This document shows positions 1,607-17,487 of a DNA stretch of 64,000 bases, in pieces. How positions within the stretch are numbered: position 1 is the stretch's first letter; each line of letters starts with the position of its first letter. The notes under the pieces were generated by a model. That model was given only the letters and a program-made list of their open reading frames with translations. It ran no database searches and was not told the DNA's origin. The DNA is from an uncultured Eubacteriales bacterium (GTDB lineage Bacteria > Bacillota > Clostridia > Christensenellales > UBA1242). Both the position numbers and the translations under genes were made by a program. The stretch covers positions 4,266-68,265 of the forward strand of contig CARTDZ010000001.1 in assembly GCA_949067325.1 (NCBI GenBank), given 5' to 3'.

Positions 1607-1668
1607 CAAAAAAATAAAAAGAGGCAAATTTACTTGCTTCTTTTTTTTGTTTTAGGTATAATAAAAAC

Positions 1669-2592
1669 ATGAAAGATTGTATTTTTTGCCAAATAATCAA
1701 AGGTGAAATTCCTAGCTACAAAATTTACGAAGACGAGTTTTCGCTTGCCTTTCTCGATATTTCAAATGACGCAAATGGCCACACCCTTGTTATACCAAAA
1801 AAGCATGTCACAAATGTTCTTGACGCTGATGATCAAACTTTGTCAAAGGTTATGCAAACCATCAAAAAAATTTCAAAGCACTATGTTGAAAATTGTGGGT
1901 TTGACGGTATGAATGTTTGCAACTGCAGTGGAGAGGCGGCTGAGCAGAGCGTTTTTCATCTCCATTTTCATATTATTCCAAGAAAGAAAGGTGACAATAT
2001 AAAAGCCTTTCCTTCTTTGCCAAAGAACAGCGAAAGTCTTGAAGAAATCTGTGAAAAGCTCAGAATAAAAGAAGAAGAGAGTAAAAAAGAAGAGGGTAAA
2101 AAAGAAGAGATAAAAGAAGAAGAGATTAAAGAAATTGACTTTAAAGATAACTCTAAAAATGTTGTTTTATATACTGACGGAGCTTGCTCTGGCAACCCTG
2201 GCATAGGCGGCTGGGGAGCAATCCTTCGCTGCAACGGTCGTGAGAAAGTCCTTTCTGGCGGAGAGGAGATGACTACAAACAACAAAATGGAGCTAATGGC
2301 AGTTATTCGCGGACTTGAGATAATAAAAGAGCCTTGCAAGGTTGATGTCTACAGCGACTCGGCTTATGTGGTCAATGCCTTCTTGCAAGACTGGATAGGC
2401 TCTTGGCAAAAGACCAATTTCAAAAATGGAACAGTTTTAAATATCGACCTTTGGAAACGTCTTAGCGCTCAAACTGAACGTCATGAGGTGACTTGGCATA
2501 AAGTCAAAGGCCACGCTGATAACGAACTCAACAATCGCTGCGACCAAATCGCTCGCGATGAAATAGCAAAAATAAAAGCCACACAAATTTAG
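1669..2592 (+). CDS. HIT-family nucleotide hydrolase fused to RNase HI
   Basis: N-terminal CIFCQII...HLHFHIIPR is a histidine triad (HxHxHxx). An EEESKKEEGKKEEIKEEEIKE linker follows. The C-terminal part carries RNase HI motifs LYTDGAC, NNKMELMA, YSDSAYV and KGHADNELNNRCDQIA (DEDD). It is one uninterrupted ORF. Confidence 0.85.
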   Translation: MKDCIFCQIIKGEIPSYKIYEDEFSLAFLDISNDANGHTLVIPKKHVTNVLDADDQTLSKVMQTIKKISKHYVENCGFDGMNVCNCSGEAAEQSVFHLHFHIIPRKKGDNIKAFPSLPKNSESLEEICEKLRIKEEESKKEEGKKEEIKEEEIKEIDFKDNSKNVVLYTDGACSGNPGIGGWGAILRCNGREKVLSGGEEMTTNNKMELMAVIRGLEIIKEPCKVDVYSDSAYVVNAFLQDWIGSWQKTNFKNGTVLNIDLWKRLSAQTERHEVTWHKVKGHADNELNNRCDQIARDEIAKIKATQI

Positions 2593-2603
2593 TGGCTTTT
2601 TTT
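2575..2603 (+). terminator. rho-independent terminator
   Basis: GCCAC(2578-2582)/GTGGC(2592-2596) stem followed by T7. It overlaps the stop codon. Confidence 0.55.
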
Positions 2604-2740
2604 AGTAAAAAACTTTCAACGTCTTTCAAAATCTTTCTATAAACTTTCAACAAATTTTTATAAAACACTCAATAAAACACTCAATAAAACTTTCAATAAA
2701 AACCCAAAAAAGTTATTCAAAAAAAGCTTTCAAAAAAATG

Positions 2741-3301
2741 TTAGTTGATGTTTATAAGGTTGTTAAATATGTTTTCATAAATGCTTGGGGCTTGGCTCTT
2801 CCATTTGTGAATAGCCTCGTTGGCACTTTGCCTTGAAGGCGCTTTTATCCTAAGCTCAAACATAGGTGTAGTTATAAGCGGCTCATAAATCTGCAAAATG
2901 ACATTATATGATCCATCATCATTTTTGGTGTAAGTGGCTGAGTATTCCTGTGACGACTTGACGGTGAGTCGGTTTGCTTTCAAATACTGAGAAATCTCTT
3001 CACGCGACGCAAGAGGGATACGTCTGTACAAATTTGACAAACATTCTCGTCCTTCATAAGAAATGTTGAAAAGCACCTTGCCTTGCTCTTCATTGCCAAT
3101 CCTATAAAGCAAATTCGACTCAACAAGGTTGTGAATAATAGCCTTGCAATCCATATAATTTTTTATCCAAGTGTTTTTGACAGAACAAATGTCAAGAATG
3201 GAATCTTCTGTCAAAGGTATCTCCATCTTGTCAATCACAAAAAGCATGATAAGTTTGTCAAGAACCACTTGTTCCTGCTCAGAAAGTATATTATTGCTCA
3301 T
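2741..3301 (-). CDS. DUF4364 family protein (putative regulator)
   Basis: MSNNILSEQEQVVLDKLIMLFVIDKMEIPLTEDSILDI...ESNLLYRI matches the DUF4364 N-terminal winged-helix-like pattern. The ORF extends to 3361, with alternative starts at 3319 and 3361. 3301 is preferred because a TTGCAA-17-TAAAAT promoter lies inside the longer versions. Confidence 0.65.
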   Translation of the reverse strand: MSNNILSEQEQVVLDKLIMLFVIDKMEIPLTEDSILDICSVKNTWIKNYMDCKAIIHNLVESNLLYRIGNEEQGKVLFNISYEGRECLSNLYRRIPLASREEISQYLKANRLTVKSSQEYSATYTKNDDGSYNVILQIYEPLITTPMFELRIKAPSRQSANEAIHKWKSQAPSIYENIFNNLININ

Positions 3302-3417
3302 TTCGATATATTTTAACATCTTTTTTCTAATCTTGCAAATTTTTTTAAGTCGACAACGCAATTTTGTTTGTTTTTTTGATAGTTTATGCTAAAATTAAGC
3401 AAAAGGAGTATTTCCAA

Positions 3418-6217: not shown

Positions 6218-7462
6218 ATGAAAAAGAAAAAGGAAATCGAAGTTAAAGAAGAAAAAAGCATGAAGATTTTGGTTATCAATGCAGGCAGTTCTTCACTTAA
6301 ATATCAACTTTTTGATATGAACGGCGAAAAGGTTGTCGCAAAAGGCAACTGCGAAAAAATAGGCCTCGAAGGCTCTTTCTTAAGCTACAAAACAGAAAAA
6401 GCAAACAAAAAAGTGGAAGTAAATATGAAAGACCATACTGCAGCACTCAAAGCAGTATTAAAGCTTCTTACTGACAAAAACGACGGCGTGCTTTCTTCTC
6501 TTGAAGAAATCTCAGCAGTAGGTCATAGAGTAGTGCAAGGCGGCTGGATCTTTGACAAATCAGTAGTGGTTGACGACAAAGTTCTCAAGGACCTTCAAAC
6601 ACTTAGCGACCTTTCACCACTCCATGCGTCAGCAAACCTTGCAGGTATCAAAGGCTGCCGCAAAGTAATGCCAAATGTACCTCATGTGCTTGTGTTTGAC
6701 ACCTCTTTCCACGCTTCTATGCCAGAAAAAGCTTTCATGTATGCTATCAAATATGAAGATTATGAAAAATACCACGTTCGCAAATATGGCTTTCATGGCA
6801 CAAGCCACCGCTTCGTAACAGGCGAAACAGCAAAACTTCTTGGCAAAAAACCAGAAGATGTCAACCTCATCGTACTCCACCTTGGCAATGGCTCTTCAAT
6901 CACAGCTGTTCAAAACGGCAAAAGTGTTGATACAACTATGGGTCTTACGCCACTTGAGGGCTTGATGATGGGAACTCGCTCTGGCGACCTCGACCCAACG
7001 GTTGTGACATACCTTGCAAACAAGAAAAAAATGACCGCTGACGAAGTTTTAAATTACCTCAACAAAGAAAGTGGCATCTACGGCATAAGCGGAGTTTCAA
7101 GCGATATGCGTGAGGTCAATGCTGAAATTGCAAAGGGCAACAAACGTGCCAGACTTGCTCTTGATATGCTCATCTATAGAGTAAGAAAATATGTCGGTGC
7201 ATATATGTTCGCTCTCGGCAGGGTGGACGCTATTGTCTTCACTGGCGGCCTTGGAGAAAACCAAGAGGATCTTCGCGAAGGTGTTCTAGACGGCCTAGAA
7301 AGCTATGGTATTGTGATCGACAAGAAAAAGAATCTTACTCTTCCACGCGGAACAGTAGAACAAATCAGCACAAAAAAATCAAAAGTAAAAGTTTTCAGAG
7401 TTCCAACTGATGAAGAACTTTTGATCGCAAGAGACACAAAAGAATTGGTTTTAAAAAAATAG
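6218..7462 (+). CDS. ackA: acetate kinase
   Basis: ILVINAGSSSLKYQLF, FHGTSH and the C-terminal VPTDEELLIARD are present. An AGGAGG RBS precedes 6218. A short Lys-rich N-terminal extension precedes an alternative ATG at 6260. Confidence 0.9.
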   Translation: MKKKKEIEVKEEKSMKILVINAGSSSLKYQLFDMNGEKVVAKGNCEKIGLEGSFLSYKTEKANKKVEVNMKDHTAALKAVLKLLTDKNDGVLSSLEEISAVGHRVVQGGWIFDKSVVVDDKVLKDLQTLSDLSPLHASANLAGIKGCRKVMPNVPHVLVFDTSFHASMPEKAFMYAIKYEDYEKYHVRKYGFHGTSHRFVTGETAKLLGKKPEDVNLIVLHLGNGSSITAVQNGKSVDTTMGLTPLEGLMMGTRSGDLDPTVVTYLANKKKMTADEVLNYLNKESGIYGISGVSSDMREVNAEIAKGNKRARLALDMLIYRVRKYVGAYMFALGRVDAIVFTGGLGENQEDLREGVLDGLESYGIVIDKKKNLTLPRGTVEQISTKKSKVKVFRVPTDEELLIARDTKELVLKK

Positions 7463-7535
7463 TCAAAAACACTTGACAAAAGCCTATAAAAACCATTATA
7501 CTTAAAAAGCAAGAATTTAAAGGAGGAAGACGAAA

Positions 7536-7727
7536 ATGGCAGTTCCAAAGGGGAAAGTTTCAAAAGCAAGAAGAAATTCAAGAAATTCAGCAAACTTTAA
7601 GGCAACAGCTCCAACACTTGTTGAATGTCCAAAATGTCACGAAATGAAAAAGCCTCACACAGTTTGTGCTAAATGTGGCACTTACAAAGGCCAAACAGTG
7701 ATTGAAAAAGAAAAAGCAGCAAAATAA
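7536..7727 (+). CDS. rpmF: 50S ribosomal protein L32 (Cys4 zinc-ribbon form)
   Basis: MAVPKGKVSKARRNSR...CPKCHEMKKPHTVCAKCG. Confidence 0.9.
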   Translation: MAVPKGKVSKARRNSRNSANFKATAPTLVECPKCHEMKKPHTVCAKCGTYKGQTVIEKEKAAK

Positions 7728-7794
7728 GCAAAAATATTTAGAAATTTGTTTCTCGTTGTTTGCAAAATATTTGCGACAATTTTCGCAAAAATCA

Positions 7795-7824
7795 AGCTTT
7801 CACACAATTTGTGAAGGCTTTTTT
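7795..7824 (+). terminator. rho-independent terminator after rpmF
   Basis: 10-bp stem AGCTTTCACA/TGTGAAGGCT with one G-U pair and a 5-nt loop, followed by T6. Confidence 0.65.
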
Positions 7825-8087
7825 AGTGCAATTTTTTGCATACTAGCCAAATATGTAGTGGTATGTCTGACATAATAGATACAAGATGTAGTATTTGGCA
7901 TCAAAACTCATTTTTTTAGTGAAAAGGCGAAAATCCTTTGTATTTTAAAGCTAAATTTGCTATTATATAAATATAAAAATTGATATACCAAATACAAAAG
8001 GTGGATTGATTTTTTACACAAAAGATTTTTGAAAATTTGACTTCATAAAAAAATAATAAAAAATTGGAGTAAGACTGGGAGTAAGAA

Positions 8088-9188
8088 ATGAAAATAGTAG
8101 TTGACGCTTTTGGAGGGGATAACGCTCCACTTGAAATAGTTGAAGGTTGCCTTATGGCACTAGACAAGCACAAAGACCTTGAACTTGTTTTGTGTGGTGA
8201 CGAAGGCAAGATAAATGAAATATTGAAAGACAAAAAAGGTTGGCAGGGACGAATTGAGATTTCTCATGCAAGCGACGTTATTTCAAATAGCGATCACCCA
8301 ACAGAGGCAATCAGAAAGAAAAAAGACAGTTCTCTTGTTCGAGCTTTTGACATTTTGAAAGATCGCGAAGATGTCATTGGTCTTGTCAGTGCTGGCAGCA
8401 CAGGAGCTGTGCTTGCTGGTGCAATTATGAAAATCGGCCGCATAAAAGGTATTTCACGTCCAGCTCTAGCACCAATTCTTCCAACAAAAAAGGAGAGCGA
8501 CGTCATCATAATCGACAGTGGCGCAAATGTCGACTGCAAACCTATCAATCTCCTTCACTTTGCGCTTATGGGTTCGTCTTATTATTCAATCATTTACAAC
8601 AAACCATCGCCACGCGTAGCCCTTCTCAACAATGGCTCTGAAGAAGGCAAGGGCAATGAGCTTGCAAAGGAAAGTTTTTCTCTTCTCAAATCAGCACCAA
8701 TAAACTTTATCGGCAACAAGGAAGGCGGTGACTTCATGAGCGGCGATGTTGACGTTATGGTGGCTGACGGATTTGCAGGAAATGCTCTCCTAAAAGGCAC
8801 TGAAGGCGCTGTGGGCGCAGTCGTTTCAATCCTCAAAAAAAGCATAAAATCACATTTCCTCAGCATGCTTGGCGCTATCTTTATGAAGAAAACGCTTAAA
8901 GAACTTAAAAACCGCATTGATATTTTAAGCAAACATGGTGGCAGTCCACTTCTTGGCTGCAAAAAACTGGTGGTGAAAAATCATGGCTCATGCAAGAGAT
9001 TAAATATAGCCTCTTCCATCGACCAAACAATTCTGCTTCACCAAAAACAACTCAACAAAAAAATTGAAGAAGCTTTAAGCACTCTTTCTTCAAGTGAAGA
9101 GGAAGGCACAAACAATGCAATCGCTTCTCAAAAAACACAAAACATGGCAAAAAAAAGTGACAACAAAGAGAGTGCAAGAGGGGAATAA
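8088..9188 (+). CDS. plsX: phosphate acyltransferase PlsX
   Basis: MKIVVDAFGGDNAP...VSAGSTGA... It carries a C-terminal hydrophilic extension of about 40 aa. Confidence 0.9.
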   Translation: MKIVVDAFGGDNAPLEIVEGCLMALDKHKDLELVLCGDEGKINEILKDKKGWQGRIEISHASDVISNSDHPTEAIRKKKDSSLVRAFDILKDREDVIGLVSAGSTGAVLAGAIMKIGRIKGISRPALAPILPTKKESDVIIIDSGANVDCKPINLLHFALMGSSYYSIIYNKPSPRVALLNNGSEEGKGNELAKESFSLLKSAPINFIGNKEGGDFMSGDVDVMVADGFAGNALLKGTEGAVGAVVSILKKSIKSHFLSMLGAIFMKKTLKELKNRIDILSKHGGSPLLGCKKLVVKNHGSCKRLNIASSIDQTILLHQKQLNKKIEEALSTLSSSEEEGTNNAIASQKTQNMAKKSDNKESARGE

Positions 9189-9190
9189 CT

Positions 9191-9844
9191 ATGAACAAAT
9201 CCAAAAACAATCCTTCTCTTGCAAATGCTCTTGGCTATGAATTCAAAAACAAAGATCTTCTTTCTCGTGCTTTGACGCATTCTTCATTTTCAAAAGAAAA
9301 TTATGAACGACTTGAATTTCTCGGCGACGGCATACTTGACTTCATAGTCGGCGATTACCTTTTCAGACAATCGCAGCAAGATGAAGGACAGCTTACCGTT
9401 TTAAGAAGCCATTTCGTTTCTGAAAACAATCTTTGCAAGATTTTTGACAGCCTTCAAATTGAAAAGTTTGTTATCACAGGCAAAAGTTATCAAGGCAGTT
9501 TGTCAAAGGCTATCAAAGCTGACATAGTTGAAGCAATTATCGCAGCTATTTATCTCGATGGCGAAAATGAAGGCCTAAAAAATGCTACAAAATTTGTAAA
9601 AAACCATTTTGCTCTTGAAACTTTTTCAAACATAGTCGATGACAATTATAAGTCGCGTCTGCAAGAGCTTGTTCAGGCAGGGTTTAAGTGCAAAATGCAG
9701 TACGTAACAGAAAAAACAGATTTCGGTTTTAAATCAACTTTCTTTATGGACGAAGACGCAATCGAAAGTGGCGAGGGTCAAAGCAAAATCGAGGCAGAGC
9801 AGCAGGCTGCAAAAAAATCAATTCAAAAACTGTTTAAAGTATAA
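9191..9844 (+). CDS. rnc: ribonuclease III
   Basis: ERLEFLGDGILD signature plus a C-terminal dsRBD. Confidence 0.9.
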   Translation: MNKSKNNPSLANALGYEFKNKDLLSRALTHSSFSKENYERLEFLGDGILDFIVGDYLFRQSQQDEGQLTVLRSHFVSENNLCKIFDSLQIEKFVITGKSYQGSLSKAIKADIVEAIIAAIYLDGENEGLKNATKFVKNHFALETFSNIVDDNYKSRLQELVQAGFKCKMQYVTEKTDFGFKSTFFMDEDAIESGEGQSKIEAEQQAAKKSIQKLFKV

Positions 9845-9896
9845 AAAGTCAATTTTTTTAAAATAACACACAAAGAAGAAATTAATAGAGGTAAAT

Positions 9897-12800
9897 ATGA
9901 TATTCAAAAAAATAGAAATGGTGGGTTTTAAATCTTTCGCAGACAGAACTGTGATTGATTTTGACAACAATTTTACAGCAATTGTTGGGCCAAACGGCTG
10001 CGGCAAAAGCAATGTCTCAGACGCAATACGTTGGGTGCTCGGCGAGCAAAGTCCAAAATCGCTGCGTGGCTCTTCTATGCAAGACGTCATCTTCAACGGA
10101 ACAGAAAAACGAAAAAGTCTTTCTTACTGCGAAGTGACTTTGACTTTTGACAACACAACTCGCTTCTTCAATTTTGATTATGACGAACTTGCTATCACAA
10201 GAAAGCTTTATCGCTCAGGCGAAAGCGAGTATCTTATCAACCGCAACACCTGCCATCTTCGTGATATCACAAACCTTCTGTATAATAGCGGTCTCGGCAA
10301 AAATGGTTATTCGGTTGTAGGGCAGGGCAAGGTCACTGAAATCGTGGATTCCAAGCCAGAAGACCGTCGTGCAATGTTTGAAGACGCGGCAGGCATTGCC
10401 AAATACAAAAAAGACAAGGTTGATGCTGAACGCAAGCTCGAGCGCACTCGCGACAACCTTACACGAATAAAAGATATACTTTCAGAAATAGAAAGACAAA
10501 TGGGGCCTCTCAAAAAGCAAGCAGAAAACGCAAAAAAATATCTTGAATATAAAGGCCAGCTTAAAGACCTTGAAATAAATGCCTACATATATCAATATGA
10601 AAACGCAAACAATGTCAAAAATCAGATAGGCGTAAGACTTAAGGCGGTAGAGGAAGAACTTGCTCTTCGTGAACAAGACTTCAAAAAAACAAGCGACGAA
10701 TATGATAAAAATATGCTCGACCTATCAAACTTTGACAAGCTTCTTGCAAGCATAAACGATCAAATACTTTCGCTTACCGTTTCGCTTGAAAAGCAAGAAG
10801 GTGAAACAAAAATCGCACGCGAACGAATTAATTTCACCCTAAAAGAAAACGACAGGCTCAATCTTGACCACACAAACGCTCAGACAGCTCTTTCTGCTTG
10901 CCAAAAAGAACAACTTGCAAAGGAAGGCGAACTTTCATCTCTGACAGAAGCACTTGACACACTTGAAAAATCTTTTACAGAACTTTCTGACGCTTACTCA
11001 GCCCTTGCAAACGATCTGTCTTTAAGCGAAAATGAAGCGGGTGCTTCACAACAAAAGATCATCGAAACTTTAGGCTCGCTTTCAGACATAAAAAGCAGTG
11101 TTTCAAGACTGTCGGCTGAACGCGATCTGCTTTCTGGCAATCTTTCAAACCTTGAAATTGACCAAAAAAATCTTAAATTAAAGGTTGAAGAATGTCAAAA
11201 AGACATAGATGAAACAACACAAAGTGTAAAAGCGCAAGAAGAGGAAATTCTTGAACTTAAAAACCAAAACCAAAGCCTTTCAAGCAAGGTTTATCTTGAC
11301 GAGCGTCGCCTTAAAGAAATTGAAACACAAAAAGCCAATCTTATCACTCAAATCAAGGTCTACGAAAACCGCAAAAAACTTCTTACTGACCTTCAAACAG
11401 ATTATGAAGGCTATTCTTATGCAATCAAAAAAATCCTTAAAGAAGGTGAGCGCAACAATGCAATCGGCAAAAATATAGTCGGTGTTATTGCTTCGCTTAT
11501 CAAAGTGCCTGAAAAGTTTGAAACTGCTATTGAAGTCGCTCTTGGCGGCGCTGTTCAAAATATTGTAACCTTTGATGAAGATGGCGCAAAAGAGCTTATA
11601 AAATTCCTCAAAGAAAACAGCTTCGGTCGTGCGACTTTCCTTCCAATAACCTCAATGAAACGTCGTGACCTCGATAGACGTGCAGTGGAAGGCAAGCAGG
11701 GCTGCTACGGCATTGCCAGCGACCTTGTAGACTATGACAAAAAAATCGACAACGTGGTCAGCAATCTCCTTGGCAGCACGGTTATTGTGGACAACCTTTC
11801 AACAGCTGTAAACATGGCAAAACAGGGTGGATACGCTTATCGTATTGTTACTCTAGATGGTGATATCGTCAACCCACAAGGCTCACTCACTGGCGGCAGC
11901 AAAAAGAATGAGGTGGCAAATCTCATGGGGCGTCAAAGAGAGATCGAAACGCTTGGCGATGAGATTATCAAACTTACAGCCAAAGAAAACAACCTTGCAA
12001 AAGAACATCAAACAGGCCTTGAAGCTTTGTCAGAACAAAACAAAACGCTAGCTGCTTTGCAAGAGAAATTAAATTCTAAAAATGTTGAACTTGCCAAAGA
12101 TAAAGAAAAGCTTGAAAGGTTGAAAATCATACTTGAAGAACTTGAAGACAACCTAAAGGTCGCTTTAGATGAAGGCCAAACTGTTTCAAACAAGCTCAAG
12201 CTCATTGGCGACGAACTTTCTCGCTCTGAAAAGATAGAAAGCGCTTTGAGTGGCAATCGTGTTGACGCAGACGAGCTTATCAAAGAAAAACGCGAAAAGA
12301 ATGAAAGGCTAAGAAAAGAAAGAGACAAACTTAGTGACAACATCATGTCAGTAAAAGTTGAAATGGCTTCAACTCGCCAAAAAATCTCTTCTGTCAAACT
12401 TGAACTTGAACGTCTGGCAAATGAAAATGGTCGCCTAAGCTTGCTTATTGAAAATCTCAAAGAGCAAATCGCAAAAAATGATGAGTTTATAGCTGCCGCA
12501 GAAGATATGATCAAGTCAAAACTGGCTTCAGCTCCAACTTCTGCCAAAAAGCAAGAGCTTGAAAGTGCCGTGGCAAAGCGTAACCAAATTGACGCAAGCA
12601 AAGAGGGGATTTCTGCTGCGATTAAAGAGCTTGACGTACGCAAATCACAGCTGATGGAAGATATTTCTCGCCTAAATGACCGCAAGTTTAGAGAAGAGAT
12701 GAACTTATCAAAAGTTGATACAGAGCTTGAACAAATGCAAGAACGCATTTATGAAGAATATTCGCTCATCTACTCAAGCTGTCTTGAATTTAGAAGACCG

Positions 12801-17131: not shown

Positions 17132-17140
17132 AAAACTGTT

Positions 17141-17471
17141 AGTTAAGCAGACAGTCGCATCTTTTTATAAGATGAGGAAAGTCCGAGCTTCAAGAGAACT
17201 GGGTGCTGGTTAACGGCCAGTGAAGGCGACTTCAAGAATAGTGCAACAGAAATAAACCGCCTAGCTTTTGCTAGGTAAGGATGGAAAGGTGGTGTAAGAG
17301 ACCACCGATTGGTTGGAGACAGCCAATGCTCTGTAAACTCCACCTGAAGCAAGGCCAAAAAGGCAATAGGGCTTGTTCTCTCCCGCCTTTTAACGTGCCG
17401 CTTGAACCTTTTGGCAACAAAAGGTCTAGATAGATGACTGTCAAATACAGAACTCGGCTTATAGCTTAACT
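17141..17471 (+). ncRNA. rnpB: RNase P RNA, bacterial class A
   Basis: Conserved blocks GAGGAAAGTCCGAGC, AGTGCAACAGAAA, GTAAACTCCACCTGAAGCAAG and ACAGAACTCGGCTTA are present. P1 pairs AGTTAAGC(17141-17148) with GCTTAACT(17464-17471). Confidence 0.9.
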
Positions 17472-17487
17472 AATCAATCAAAAACAA

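Follow-up and report, generated by a model that had tools for sequence, protein, structure and literature searches.

A HIT-RNase HI fusion protein of gut Clostridia and its probable origin from a hit-rnhA operon

Introduction

Hint proteins are obligate homodimers of the HIT superfamily, and the physiological role of the bacterial Hint/Hit proteins is poorly defined. HIT chemistry consists of an attack on the alpha-phosphate of AMP-X, in Hint and aprataxin alike. The known substrates of Hint enzymes are P-N and acyl-adenylate compounds, and not AppN, the pyrophosphate-linked form found in adenylated nucleic acid.

Aprataxin (APTX) grips a nick with a zinc finger, which contributes to a composite HIT-Znf DNA-binding surface, and with an N-terminal alpha-1 wedge helix that carries His166 and Trp167 in the human protein (PMC6043908). 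Type 1 RNase H leaves single embedded ribonucleotides uncut (PMC5224475), and is thus not the maker of the RER junction that aprataxin repairs. Fusions of RNase H to other enzymes have been described in Mycobacterium smegmatis. RnhC joins RNase HI to an acid phosphatase as "two autonomous catalytic domains" (PMC5224475), with a variable linker and two functions that dissociate in vivo (PMC7466739). This fusion (MSMEG_4305) was attributed by Czubat et al. to neutral persistence and drift (PMC7466739). RnhD combines RNase HII with a (p)ppGpp synthetase, and its RNase H activity reportedly required the full-length protein (PMC5224475).

Here we compare these systems with a gene for a HIT-RNase HI fusion protein located in a 64-kb stretch of clostridial DNA (64,000 nucleotides, hereafter the window).

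Results

An earlier note, made from the DNA alone, had described a single polypeptide in which a HIT nucleotide hydrolase is joined to RNase HI. One ORF of 307 aa does encode both domains, and Pfam HIT and RNase_H are both matched in it. The features of the locus are as follows.

1616..1645, + strand: terminator-like hairpin with a 12-bp stem and a T-run, closing the upstream 96-aa ORF
1634..1662, + strand: promoter-like element with -35 TTGCTT (1634-1639), a 17-nt spacer and a perfect -10 TATAAT (1657-1662)
1669..2592, + strand: HIT-RNase HI fusion ORF, 307 aa, ATG start, TAG stop
1669..2073, + strand: HIT module, assigned to the Hint branch, aa 1-135, equal to a complete stand-alone Hit protein
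1678..1689, + strand: CxxC motif (C4, C7), invariant
1957..1980, + strand: histidine triad HLHFHIIP (H97, H99, H101 invariant), preceded by Hint-type Q93-S94-V95
2062..2130, + strand: 15-nt repeat in 4.5 tandem copies, coding for the E/K-rich stretch of the linker
2074..2151, + strand: interdomain linker, aa 136-161, predicted to be disordered and hypervariable across the family
2152..2583, + strand: RNase HI module of the E. coli type, aa 162-305, including a basic protrusion
2176-2178 (D170), 2290-2292 (E208), 2356-2358 (D230), 2512-2514 (H282) and 2542-2544 (D292), + strand: RNase HI catalytic codons
2574..2604, + strand: intrinsic terminator, a 9-bp hairpin with the TAG stop in its loop, then a T-run
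2741..3361, - strand: convergent DUF4364 gene, the neighbour at every locus examined, whether fused or a hit-rnhA pair

The N-terminal module is matched by Pfam HIT (PF01230) at aa 11-107 (E 2e-26; 92.9 bits, cut-off 21.5). Stand-alone Hit proteins (134-135 aa) stop exactly where this module stops, and the module keeps their C-terminal helix, which ends "...SLEEICEKLRIKE". The triad region reads AEQSVFHLHFHIIP, a HxHxHxx motif with a preceding Gln-Ser equivalent to Q106 and S107 of Hint1. The intact triad announced by the earlier note was located at exactly nt 1957-1980 with all three His present, and these are invariant in 121 sequences, among which conservation of Q93 and V95 is 90% or higher; in alignment A3, S94 never varies. 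A PDB sequence search returned 1Y23 (2e-30), HINT1 (7e-15) and HinT (2e-11) as solved relatives, followed at greater distance by FHIT (1e-6), Ap4A phosphorylase (3e-4) and GalT (0.07); the closest of these relatives are multi-chain entries. On sequence grounds the module belongs to the Hint branch, with B. subtilis Hit and HINT1. By analogy with Gram-positive Hit, the invariant C4 and C7 would form a candidate zinc site together with H46 (nt 1804-1806), likewise invariant. The NCBIfam HinT equivalogs score below their cut-offs (NF007965, purine nucleoside phosphoramidase, 51 bits against 206; NF045834, Mycoplasma HinT, 96.8 against 130), so that annotation pipelines call the protein just "ribonuclease HI". 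A defence role, with the module as the Thoeris accessory HIT protein ThsC, was considered and rejected: PADLOC gave a generic HIT-family match alone (E 3e-16), and the gene is surrounded by housekeeping genes, with none for the SIR2 or TIR proteins (ThsA/ThsB) beside which ThsC is encoded.

The C-terminal module is matched by Pfam RNase_H (PF00075; aa 163-298, E 3e-38) and by the NCBIfam RNase HI equivalog NF001236 (aa 162-305; 194.5 bits, cut-off 160). The domain is complete and carries all of the DEDD residues (D170, E208, D230, D292), as had been claimed, and H282 in addition; the five are invariant in the 121 family members and align with the catalytic residues of E. coli and Chlorobium RNase HI (E. 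coli D10, E48, D70, H124 and D134). In sequence searches the E-value was 8e-46 for 3H08 and about 1e-40 for E. coli RNase HI, and the predicted fold was superposed on 3H08 by Foldseek with a target TM-score of 0.92-0.94, an rmsd of 1.4-1.6 A and 51% identity. The basic protrusion is present but is 3 residues shorter than in the family consensus. Because an in-frame internal start codon is absent, RNase HI can be produced here only as a fusion; no second copy of hit or rnhA was found within the 64-kb window.

The E/K linker of the earlier note lies at about aa 136-161 (26 aa) and consists mostly of the 15-nt tandem repeat, which reads as a lineage-specific expansion. Strand 1 of RNase H follows the triad at a distance of 62 aa, compared with a family median of 44 (range 34-95). 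In the AlphaFold monomer model, pLDDT falls below 50 over aa 139-161 and pTM is 0.49; a member with a short linker (P0019) reached a pLDDT of 91.7 with a pTM of just 0.55. AlphaFold predicts no interdomain packing for the monomer, a dimer or substrate-induced arrangement being outside the reach of such a run, and the word autonomous is therefore a default reading and no demonstration.

The TATAAT element ends just 6 nt 5' of the ATG, and a Shine-Dalgarno sequence is absent. The fusion transcript looks leaderless if the promoter-like element acts as its sequence suggests, and the hairpin at 1616..1645 would shield the gene from transcription upstream. The same promoter arrangement is seen in the nearest fused homologue (L094), and more distant members possess an AGGAG ribosome-binding site. 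The hairpin at 2574..2604 has a predicted energy of -10.9 kcal/mol (z -3.9), and hairpins with an embedded stop likewise occur in L087, L092 and L094. The surrounding housekeeping neighbourhood is kept (mnmA..DUF378..fusion<DUF4364..<Gate-pta-ackA-rpmF-plsX-rnc-smc). The DUF4364 gene is a constant neighbour. A NUDIX gene was discarded as a partner, being found upstream in L094, degenerate in the source sequence and unconserved across the family.

At least 279 clusters of proteins, drawn at 90% identity, have the two-domain architecture (E<=1e-90 against a two-domain profile), and HIT and RNase_H are both carried by 120/120 clusters among the matches listed. In the closest relatives, hit and rnhA are separate genes that lie adjacent at the same chromosomal site, with junctions that range from a 4-nt overlap to a 23-nt gap. 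The stand-alone Hit encoded at this site, directly 5' of a separate rnhA, is 66-75% identical to the HIT module. The hit-rnhA junctions of the split pairs are as follows.

L095/L096: GTGA overlap
L105: ATGA overlap
L104: 2-nt gap
L102/L103: 11-nt gap
L097-L099: 23-nt gap

Overlaps of the hit stop codon with the rnhA start codon are a sign that the two are translationally coupled, and in L102 the two genes are still adjacent despite a rearranged wider neighbourhood. The hit and rnhA frames differ by one, so that a single 1-nt deletion would fuse them; in the junction alignment the length difference is 2 nt and falls within an A-rich tract. Since the closest relatives carry split, adjacent hit-rnhA genes at the same site, the fusion can be seen as a small-indel derivative of an operon. 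The switch between the fused and split states has probably taken place more than once, counts of fusion and fission events being drawn from NJ trees with bootstrap values below 50%. Beyond these relatives, a HIT gene lay within 10 kb at 0/80 more distant rnhA loci among the matches listed, all of which are ordinary and unfused, and an adjacent rnhA was found at 0/70 evaluable more distant hit loci. As judged from these sequences, the linkage is specific to a narrow clade of gut Clostridia and the genes are unlinked outside it.

Several other proposals on origin and architecture were abandoned. An origin without a hit-rnhA pair, drawn from those 80 loci, was overturned by the presence of such pairs in the closest relatives. 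A single origin had been read from an RNase H tree in which the fused proteins formed one clade versus 171 unfused, with split-pair rnhA not included; once added, the split-pair rnhA genes nest among the fused subclades with weak support. Apparent reverse-order RNase H-HIT fusions (about 300 aa, two matched stretches) were found with HMMs and Pfam to be tandem or triple RNase H. Finally, an ancestral mtaB-hit-rpsU arrangement holds for P0169 and one other locus, not generally.

Discussion

We consider it probable, at roughly 65%, that a hit-rnhA operon gave rise to a vertically inherited in-frame fusion whose product comprises two autonomous enzymes tethered in a 1:1 ratio. Under this explanation, hit (encoding a Hint-type nucleoside-5'-monophosphate-X hydrolase) and rnhA would be neighbouring housekeeping genes that form a tight, translationally coupled operon in one narrow clade of uncultured gut Clostridia, and small indels at the A-rich junction would merge the two genes into one and possibly separate them again. 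The protein may thus unite an autonomous AMP-X (phosphoramidate or acyl-adenylate) hydrolase with an RNA:DNA-hybrid endonuclease, the two enzymes being made 1:1 and kept together. Each module matches a full-length stand-alone enzyme, and both active sites are complete and invariant. As Hint proteins are obligate homodimers, the fusion protein is probably a dimer, which should display two RNase HI heads. Selection for such a lasting pairing may act on joint expression, on co-localisation or on a substrate common to both enzymes. Gene pairs that are adjacent, coupled and repeatedly fused classically point to a tie in function or to physical contact, and pure independence of the two enzymes may therefore understate the biology.

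It might be objected that a sequencing or assembly frameshift has fused two genes in the source sequence, as only a small indel in the A-rich junction separates the fused from the split state and two genes are truly present in close relatives. However, the identical 307-aa ORF occurs in three assemblies besides the source (NCBI MAG GCA_948551495.1 and two independent Logan assemblies), and the whole subclade P0001-P0005 is fused with differing linkers (71-97% identity, P0001 being the 97%-identical relative; NJ bootstrap 94). In addition, the 26 in-frame codons of the linker are too long for a one-base slip, and the ancestral rnhA start codon is absent from the fusion gene. The reading frame is genuine, and the chance of an artefact is negligible. 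The earlier note had allowed that relatives with two separate genes might reveal an assembly error; such relatives exist, but their split genes lie side by side at this very locus under translational coupling, which explains the fusion and exposes no mistake. It is also unlikely that the pairing is a historical accident, in which hit landed beside rnhA in the ancestor of the clade and harmless fusions persist neutrally with no functional tie. The hypervariable linker, the presence of both states within the clade, modules indistinguishable from stand-alone enzymes and the absence of linkage outside the clade (at rnhA loci among the matches listed and at evaluable hit loci) agree with this, as does a published RNase HI fusion put down to drift (PMC7466739). 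Yet the pair stays adjacent even where the neighbourhood is rearranged (L102), overlapping stop and start codons point to translational coupling, and neither active site has decayed across at least 279 fused clusters. We regard it as very unlikely that the HIT module simply serves RNase HI, either as a dimerisation scaffold that renders it bivalent and more avid or processive, or as a nucleotide sensor (of Ap4A or another adenylylated alarmone) that adjusts RNase H activity during stress, although Hint proteins are homodimers and the closest solved HIT relatives are multi-chain. An RNase H joined to an alarmone enzyme is, moreover, already known in RnhD (PMC5224475). A mere scaffold would need no invariant triad or Q-S-V motif, however, and no interdomain contact is predicted that could carry a signal. 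Hit and rnhA are also commonly found as two separate genes within this clade, so that covalent dimerisation cannot explain the existence of the pair.

The aprataxin-like role put forward in the earlier note did not find support: the HIT module is assigned to the Hint branch, it possesses neither a zinc finger nor a wedge helix, and its partner is a type 1 RNase H. Such a coupling is possible but unsupported, and we think it quite unlikely. It would have RNase HI bind and cut hybrids (Okazaki primers, R-loops) and leave 5'-phosphate RNA ends, which a ligase would abortively adenylate and from which the Hint module, tethered or co-expressed, would strip the 5'-AMP, or might remove another 5'-nucleotidyl adduct or cap instead; RNase HI would supply the nucleic-acid grip, as the zinc finger does in APTX. 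The pairing is kept across the clade both as an operon and as a fusion, the active sites of HIT and RNase HI are both invariant, the attack on the alpha-phosphate of AMP-X is common to Hint and aprataxin, and no bacterial counterpart of aprataxin was found in the literature searched. Contrarily, none of the 53 matches in the PDB at E<=10 is an APTX chain, Pfam places no C-terminal C2H2 zinc finger after the HIT module, which is followed by the linker and RNase HI, and the HIT core starts as early as residue 4 (MKDCIFC...), leaving no N-terminal extension for an alpha-1 wedge helix. The RER junction is made by RNase H2 rather than by type 1 RNase H, the tether is flexible with no composite site predicted, and the known Hint substrates are not pyrophosphate-linked. 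If the clade-wide operon and its repeated fusion did nevertheless reflect a true biochemical partnership, in which a Hint enzyme brought to RNA:DNA hybrids by RNase HI cleared 5'-adenylyl, other 5'-nucleotidyl or cap adducts from RNA-DNA ends, which we equally doubt, bacteria would possess a functional analogue of aprataxin from another HIT branch, and their Hint proteins a first nucleic-acid substrate.

The origin of the HIT-RNase HI protein from an operon is a new finding. The architecture had been taken to be uncharacterised, and indeed no paper on a HIT-RNase HI pairing, nor any report of a Hint protein with a nucleic-acid-processing partner, was found in the literature searched. Sources label the protein solely "ribonuclease HI", a name that leaves the HIT half invisible in databases. 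The pair is adjacent, coupled and fused in hundreds of gut Clostridia lineages, and this offers a guilt-by-association lead from Hint to RNA:DNA-hybrid metabolism. Were the modules merely co-expressed, they would still constitute a clean natural case of operon/fusion conversion by single indels.

Among known systems, Hint proteins (1Y23, Bartonella Hit-like 3LB5, HINT1 and E. coli HinT) match the N-terminal 135 aa over their full length, and share with them HxHxHxx, the preceding Q-S-V, the ribose-binding Asp of AFLDI and the CxxC motif; stand-alone clostridial Hit (134-135 aa) is up to 75% identical. Whereas these proteins stand alone, the HIT module described here is covalently bound to RNase HI. 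Similarly, E. coli-type RNase HI (3H08 from Chlorobium tepidum, 1RNH/2RN2 from E. coli) shows the same DEDD residues, His and basic protrusion, but here it lacks its own start codon and forms the C-terminal half of a fusion. Aprataxin (APTX/Hnt3) resembles the fusion in HIT fold, triad chemistry and association with RNA-DNA junctions, yet it acts downstream of RNase H2 and the partner in the fusion is RNase HI. NitFhit (1EMS, E 4e-9), a classic "Rosetta stone", also consists of a HIT domain that is fused in some lineages while the partner gene is separate elsewhere, although it is eukaryotic, of the Fhit branch and joined to a nitrilase. RnhD likewise joins an RNase H to a nucleotide- or alarmone-metabolising enzyme; it differs by its type 2 RNase H and RelA/SpoT-type partner, and the interdependence of its domains is not suggested for HIT-RNase HI. 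There is a likeness in design to mycobacterial RnhC (MSMEG_4305/Rv2228c), in which a variable linker connects RNase HI with a phospho-hydrolase of small molecules within one lineage (PMC5224475, PMC7466739), although RNase HI is N-terminal there and the CobC-type acid phosphatase partner has another fold and chemistry. With two complete domains, a variable linker and restriction to one lineage, HIT-RNase HI falls into the RnhC-like bifunctional class, which is a functional class and not one of homology. Unlike RnhC, the HIT-RNase HI family has a two-gene operon precursor that is directly visible.

Results

Architecture of the fusion gene

A single ORF joins a HIT module, a linker and RNase HI, and the gene description in the earlier note (one ORF, intact triad at 1957-1980, complete RNase HI domain with its catalytic residues) was accurate. 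The features of the gene and the window are as follows.

1669-2592, + strand: HIT-RNase HI fusion, single ORF, 307 aa
aa 11-107 of the fusion: HIT domain PF01230 (Pfam, E 2e-26)
aa 163-298 of the fusion: RNase H domain PF00075 (Pfam, E 3e-38)
1957-1980, + strand: histidine triad HLHFHIIP, exact position confirmed
2062-2130: 15-nt tandem repeat, 4.5 copies, encoding the E/K-rich stretch
1616-1645: terminator-like hairpin closing the ORF upstream of the fusion
1634-1669 region: promoter-like element (TTGCTT -35, 17-nt spacing, TATAAT), ending 6 nt ahead of the ATG
Fusion 3' end: hairpin (9 bp, -10.9 kcal/mol, z -3.9) with T-run, the stop codon within the loop
754-1230, + strand: divergent NUDIX-like ORF, 158 aa (Pfam NUDIX 14.6 bits, under cut-off)
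17139-17477, + strand: bacterial class A RNase P RNA (Rfam RF00010, 290 bits, match over the full model)

The 64-kb window contains no tRNA gene that ARAGORN could detect.

Against the RNase HI equivalog of NCBIfam the fusion protein scored 194.5 bits, above the cut-off of 160; the scores for the named HinT models all stayed below theirs. RNase HI residues D170, E208, D230, H282 and D292 are all present and, like HIT residues C4, C7, H46, H97, H99 and H101, are invariant in an alignment of 121 members. By sequence, the family retains two complete, conserved active sites and each module corresponds to a full stand-alone enzyme. The best solved relative of the HIT module is B. subtilis Hit (1Y23, 2e-30), and other solved Hint-type relatives include a Bartonella Hit-like protein, human HINT1 (7e-15) and E. 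coli HinT (2e-11), while FHIT scored merely 1e-6 and no aprataxin chain occurred among the solved-structure matches even at E<=10; these matches place the module on the Hint branch. The RNase H module is an RNase HI of the canonical E. coli type: its sequence matches reach 8e-46 for 3H08 and about 1e-40 for the E. coli enzyme, and the Foldseek alignment has a target TM-score of 0.92 at 1.4-1.6 A. Foldseek returned no solved chain covering both domains.

The window's linker repeat is lineage-specific, and 62 aa separate the triad from RNase H strand 1, compared with a family median of 44 (range 34-95). AlphaFold2 modelled the domains confidently, with linker residues 139-161 below pLDDT 50 and a pTM of 0.49; the fused homologue P0019, which has a short linker, reached a pLDDT of 91.7 and a pTM of just 0.55. 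A fixed interdomain arrangement was predicted for neither protein. Models and family sequences indicate a disordered, fast-evolving linker. At the HIT/RNase H junction of the P0019 locus (L087, about 6400-6420) we noted an A8 run (AAAATAAAAAAAAT); speculatively, this slippage-prone run could drive fused/split switching or truncated products. No internal in-frame start precedes the RNase H module in the window's lineage, so that its RNase HI would be made solely as the fusion.

The fusion gene appears to be transcribed on its own. The perfect TATAAT 6 nt before the ATG, the -35 element at 17 nt and the absence of a Shine-Dalgarno sequence suggest that, within the window's subclade only, the mRNA is leaderless; elsewhere in the family an ordinary AGGAG ribosome-binding site precedes the gene. 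The arrangement of 1634-1669 recurs at the nearest fused homologue locus (L094, about 7940-8003).

Reality and spread of the fusion

NCBI MAG GCA_948551495.1 and two independent Logan assemblies encode an identical protein, and at least 279 clusters at 90% identity match the two-domain profile at E<=1e-90, a threshold attainable by two-domain proteins only. Both Pfam domains, with full-length coverage, were found in all 120 best clusters (53-97% identity). The fusion is real. Its family comes from human-gut, mouse-gut and other metagenomes, where its sole database names are 'ribonuclease HI [Clostridia / Clostridiales bacterium]'. Among the best 150 matches to 1.84 billion representatives of 50%-identity clusters, only P0165 had this architecture, so the family is one narrow clade. 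Our literature search turned up no publication describing HIT and RNase H as a fusion or an operon.

Other architectures were observed among these 150 representatives: 44 (within P0166-P0313) have two RNase H domains in tandem in one polypeptide of about 290-360 aa, and three carry triple RNase H domains, e.g. P0167 (509 aa), with multiple domains Pfam-confirmed for P0167 and P0168. Another HIT fusion, P0255 (442 aa), has a Hint-type domain at aa 307-410 after some 300 N-terminal residues without a Pfam match.

Origin from a gene pair

The main new result of this analysis is the operon origin of the fusion, which junctions and gene order trace to a translationally coupled hit-rnhA pair. A search with the HIT module only recovered stand-alone Hit proteins of 134-135 aa, up to 75% identical and closer to the window's module than most fused members, whose C-terminal end is the exact end of the fused HIT module. 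Their genes occupy the fusion's chromosomal site (scpAB..mnmA-DUF378..[ ]..<DUF4364..<Gate-pta-ackA-rpmF-plsX-rnc-smc), each directly followed by a separate rnhA (145-150 aa product). The hit/rnhA junctions at these split loci are as follows.

L095/L096: GTGA stop/start overlap
L105: ATGA overlap
L104: 2-nt gap
L102/L103: 11-nt gap
L097-L099: 23-nt gap with ribosome-binding site

Because the hit and rnhA frames are offset by one, a 1-base deletion near the hit end would merge both. When aligned, the split L104 junction and that of its nearest fused relative, L087, differ by 2 nt in length and by substitutions within a tract rich in A. An NJ tree of the two concatenated domains nests the four split pairs among fused subclades, and parsimony requires at least three fused/split state changes, a count that the bootstrap supports (<50%) leave tentative; the window's subclade is all fused (bootstrap 94).

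The hit-rnhA linkage is clade-specific. No hit gene lay within 10 kb of rnhA at 80 more distant rnhA loci among the matches listed, and at the 70 evaluable hit loci of greater distance (identity 62% or lower) rnhA was never adjacent. Linkage is likewise missing in two close relatives (64% identity): P0169 lies in mtaB-hit-rpsU, and the gene for P0445 has a terminator after it. In the P0169 lineage (L090, 1-1424), a radical-SAM (MtaB-like) gene overlaps the hit start by 4 nt, with rpsU next, so hit is translationally coupled to different partners across lineages. RNase H-like ORFs on the opposite strand, 2.3-3.0 kb upstream of two distant hit genes (L150, L160), are probably coincidental.

A convergent DUF4364 gene (window 2741-3361, - strand) lies just downstream of the fusion, and DUF4364 is convergent downstream of the fusion or pair at every locus examined (window, L084, L087, L092, L094, L095, L097, L102, L104), including L102 despite its different wider neighbourhood. 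Insertions before DUF4364 were seen in L094 (Y1 transposase, PF01797, 8979-9434, - strand) and L104 (997-aa ORF without a Pfam match, 6995-9988, + strand). Upstream, L094 has a bona fide NUDIX gene (7461-7973) 28 bp from the fusion, to which the window's 158-aa ORF is 26% identical (E 7e-10); the Nudix box of the latter looks degenerate, and family members do not consistently carry this neighbour.

Discussion

The fusion probably works as two enzymes that are autonomous, one a Hint-type hydrolase of AMP-X and the other an endonuclease of RNA:DNA hybrids, which would be made in a 1:1 ratio and held together by the tether. Because Hint proteins form homodimers, the fusion would be expected to be dimeric with two RNase HI heads. 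On hybrids, RNase HI leaves RNA ends with a 5'-phosphate.

The earlier note proposed an aprataxin-like role, correctly citing that APTX repairs abortive ligation arising in ribonucleotide excision repair (PMC6043908). Three points make this a weak analogy: the HIT module does not resemble aprataxin in sequence; the zinc finger and wedge helix that form aprataxin's DNA-binding surface (PMC6043908) are absent; and the partner is a type 1 RNase H, which needs roughly four ribonucleotides in a row and leaves a single embedded one uncut (PMC5224475). A surviving version, in which RNase HI would bind the nucleic acid for the HIT active site, gains some indirect support from the persistence of the pair as both operon and fusion, and we consider it improbable.

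Fusion and operon offer a sound comparative-genomics lead; they do not demonstrate a new repair system. Two kinds were already known: RNase H within multidomain proteins, and HIT in 'Rosetta stone' fusions such as NitFhit. The closest studied precedent is the mycobacterial RNase HI-acid phosphatase RnhC/MSMEG_4305/Rv2228c: it is described as having 'two autonomous catalytic domains' (PMC5224475), and it has a highly variable linker and functions that dissociate in vivo, its fusion being ascribed to drift by its authors (PMC7466739).
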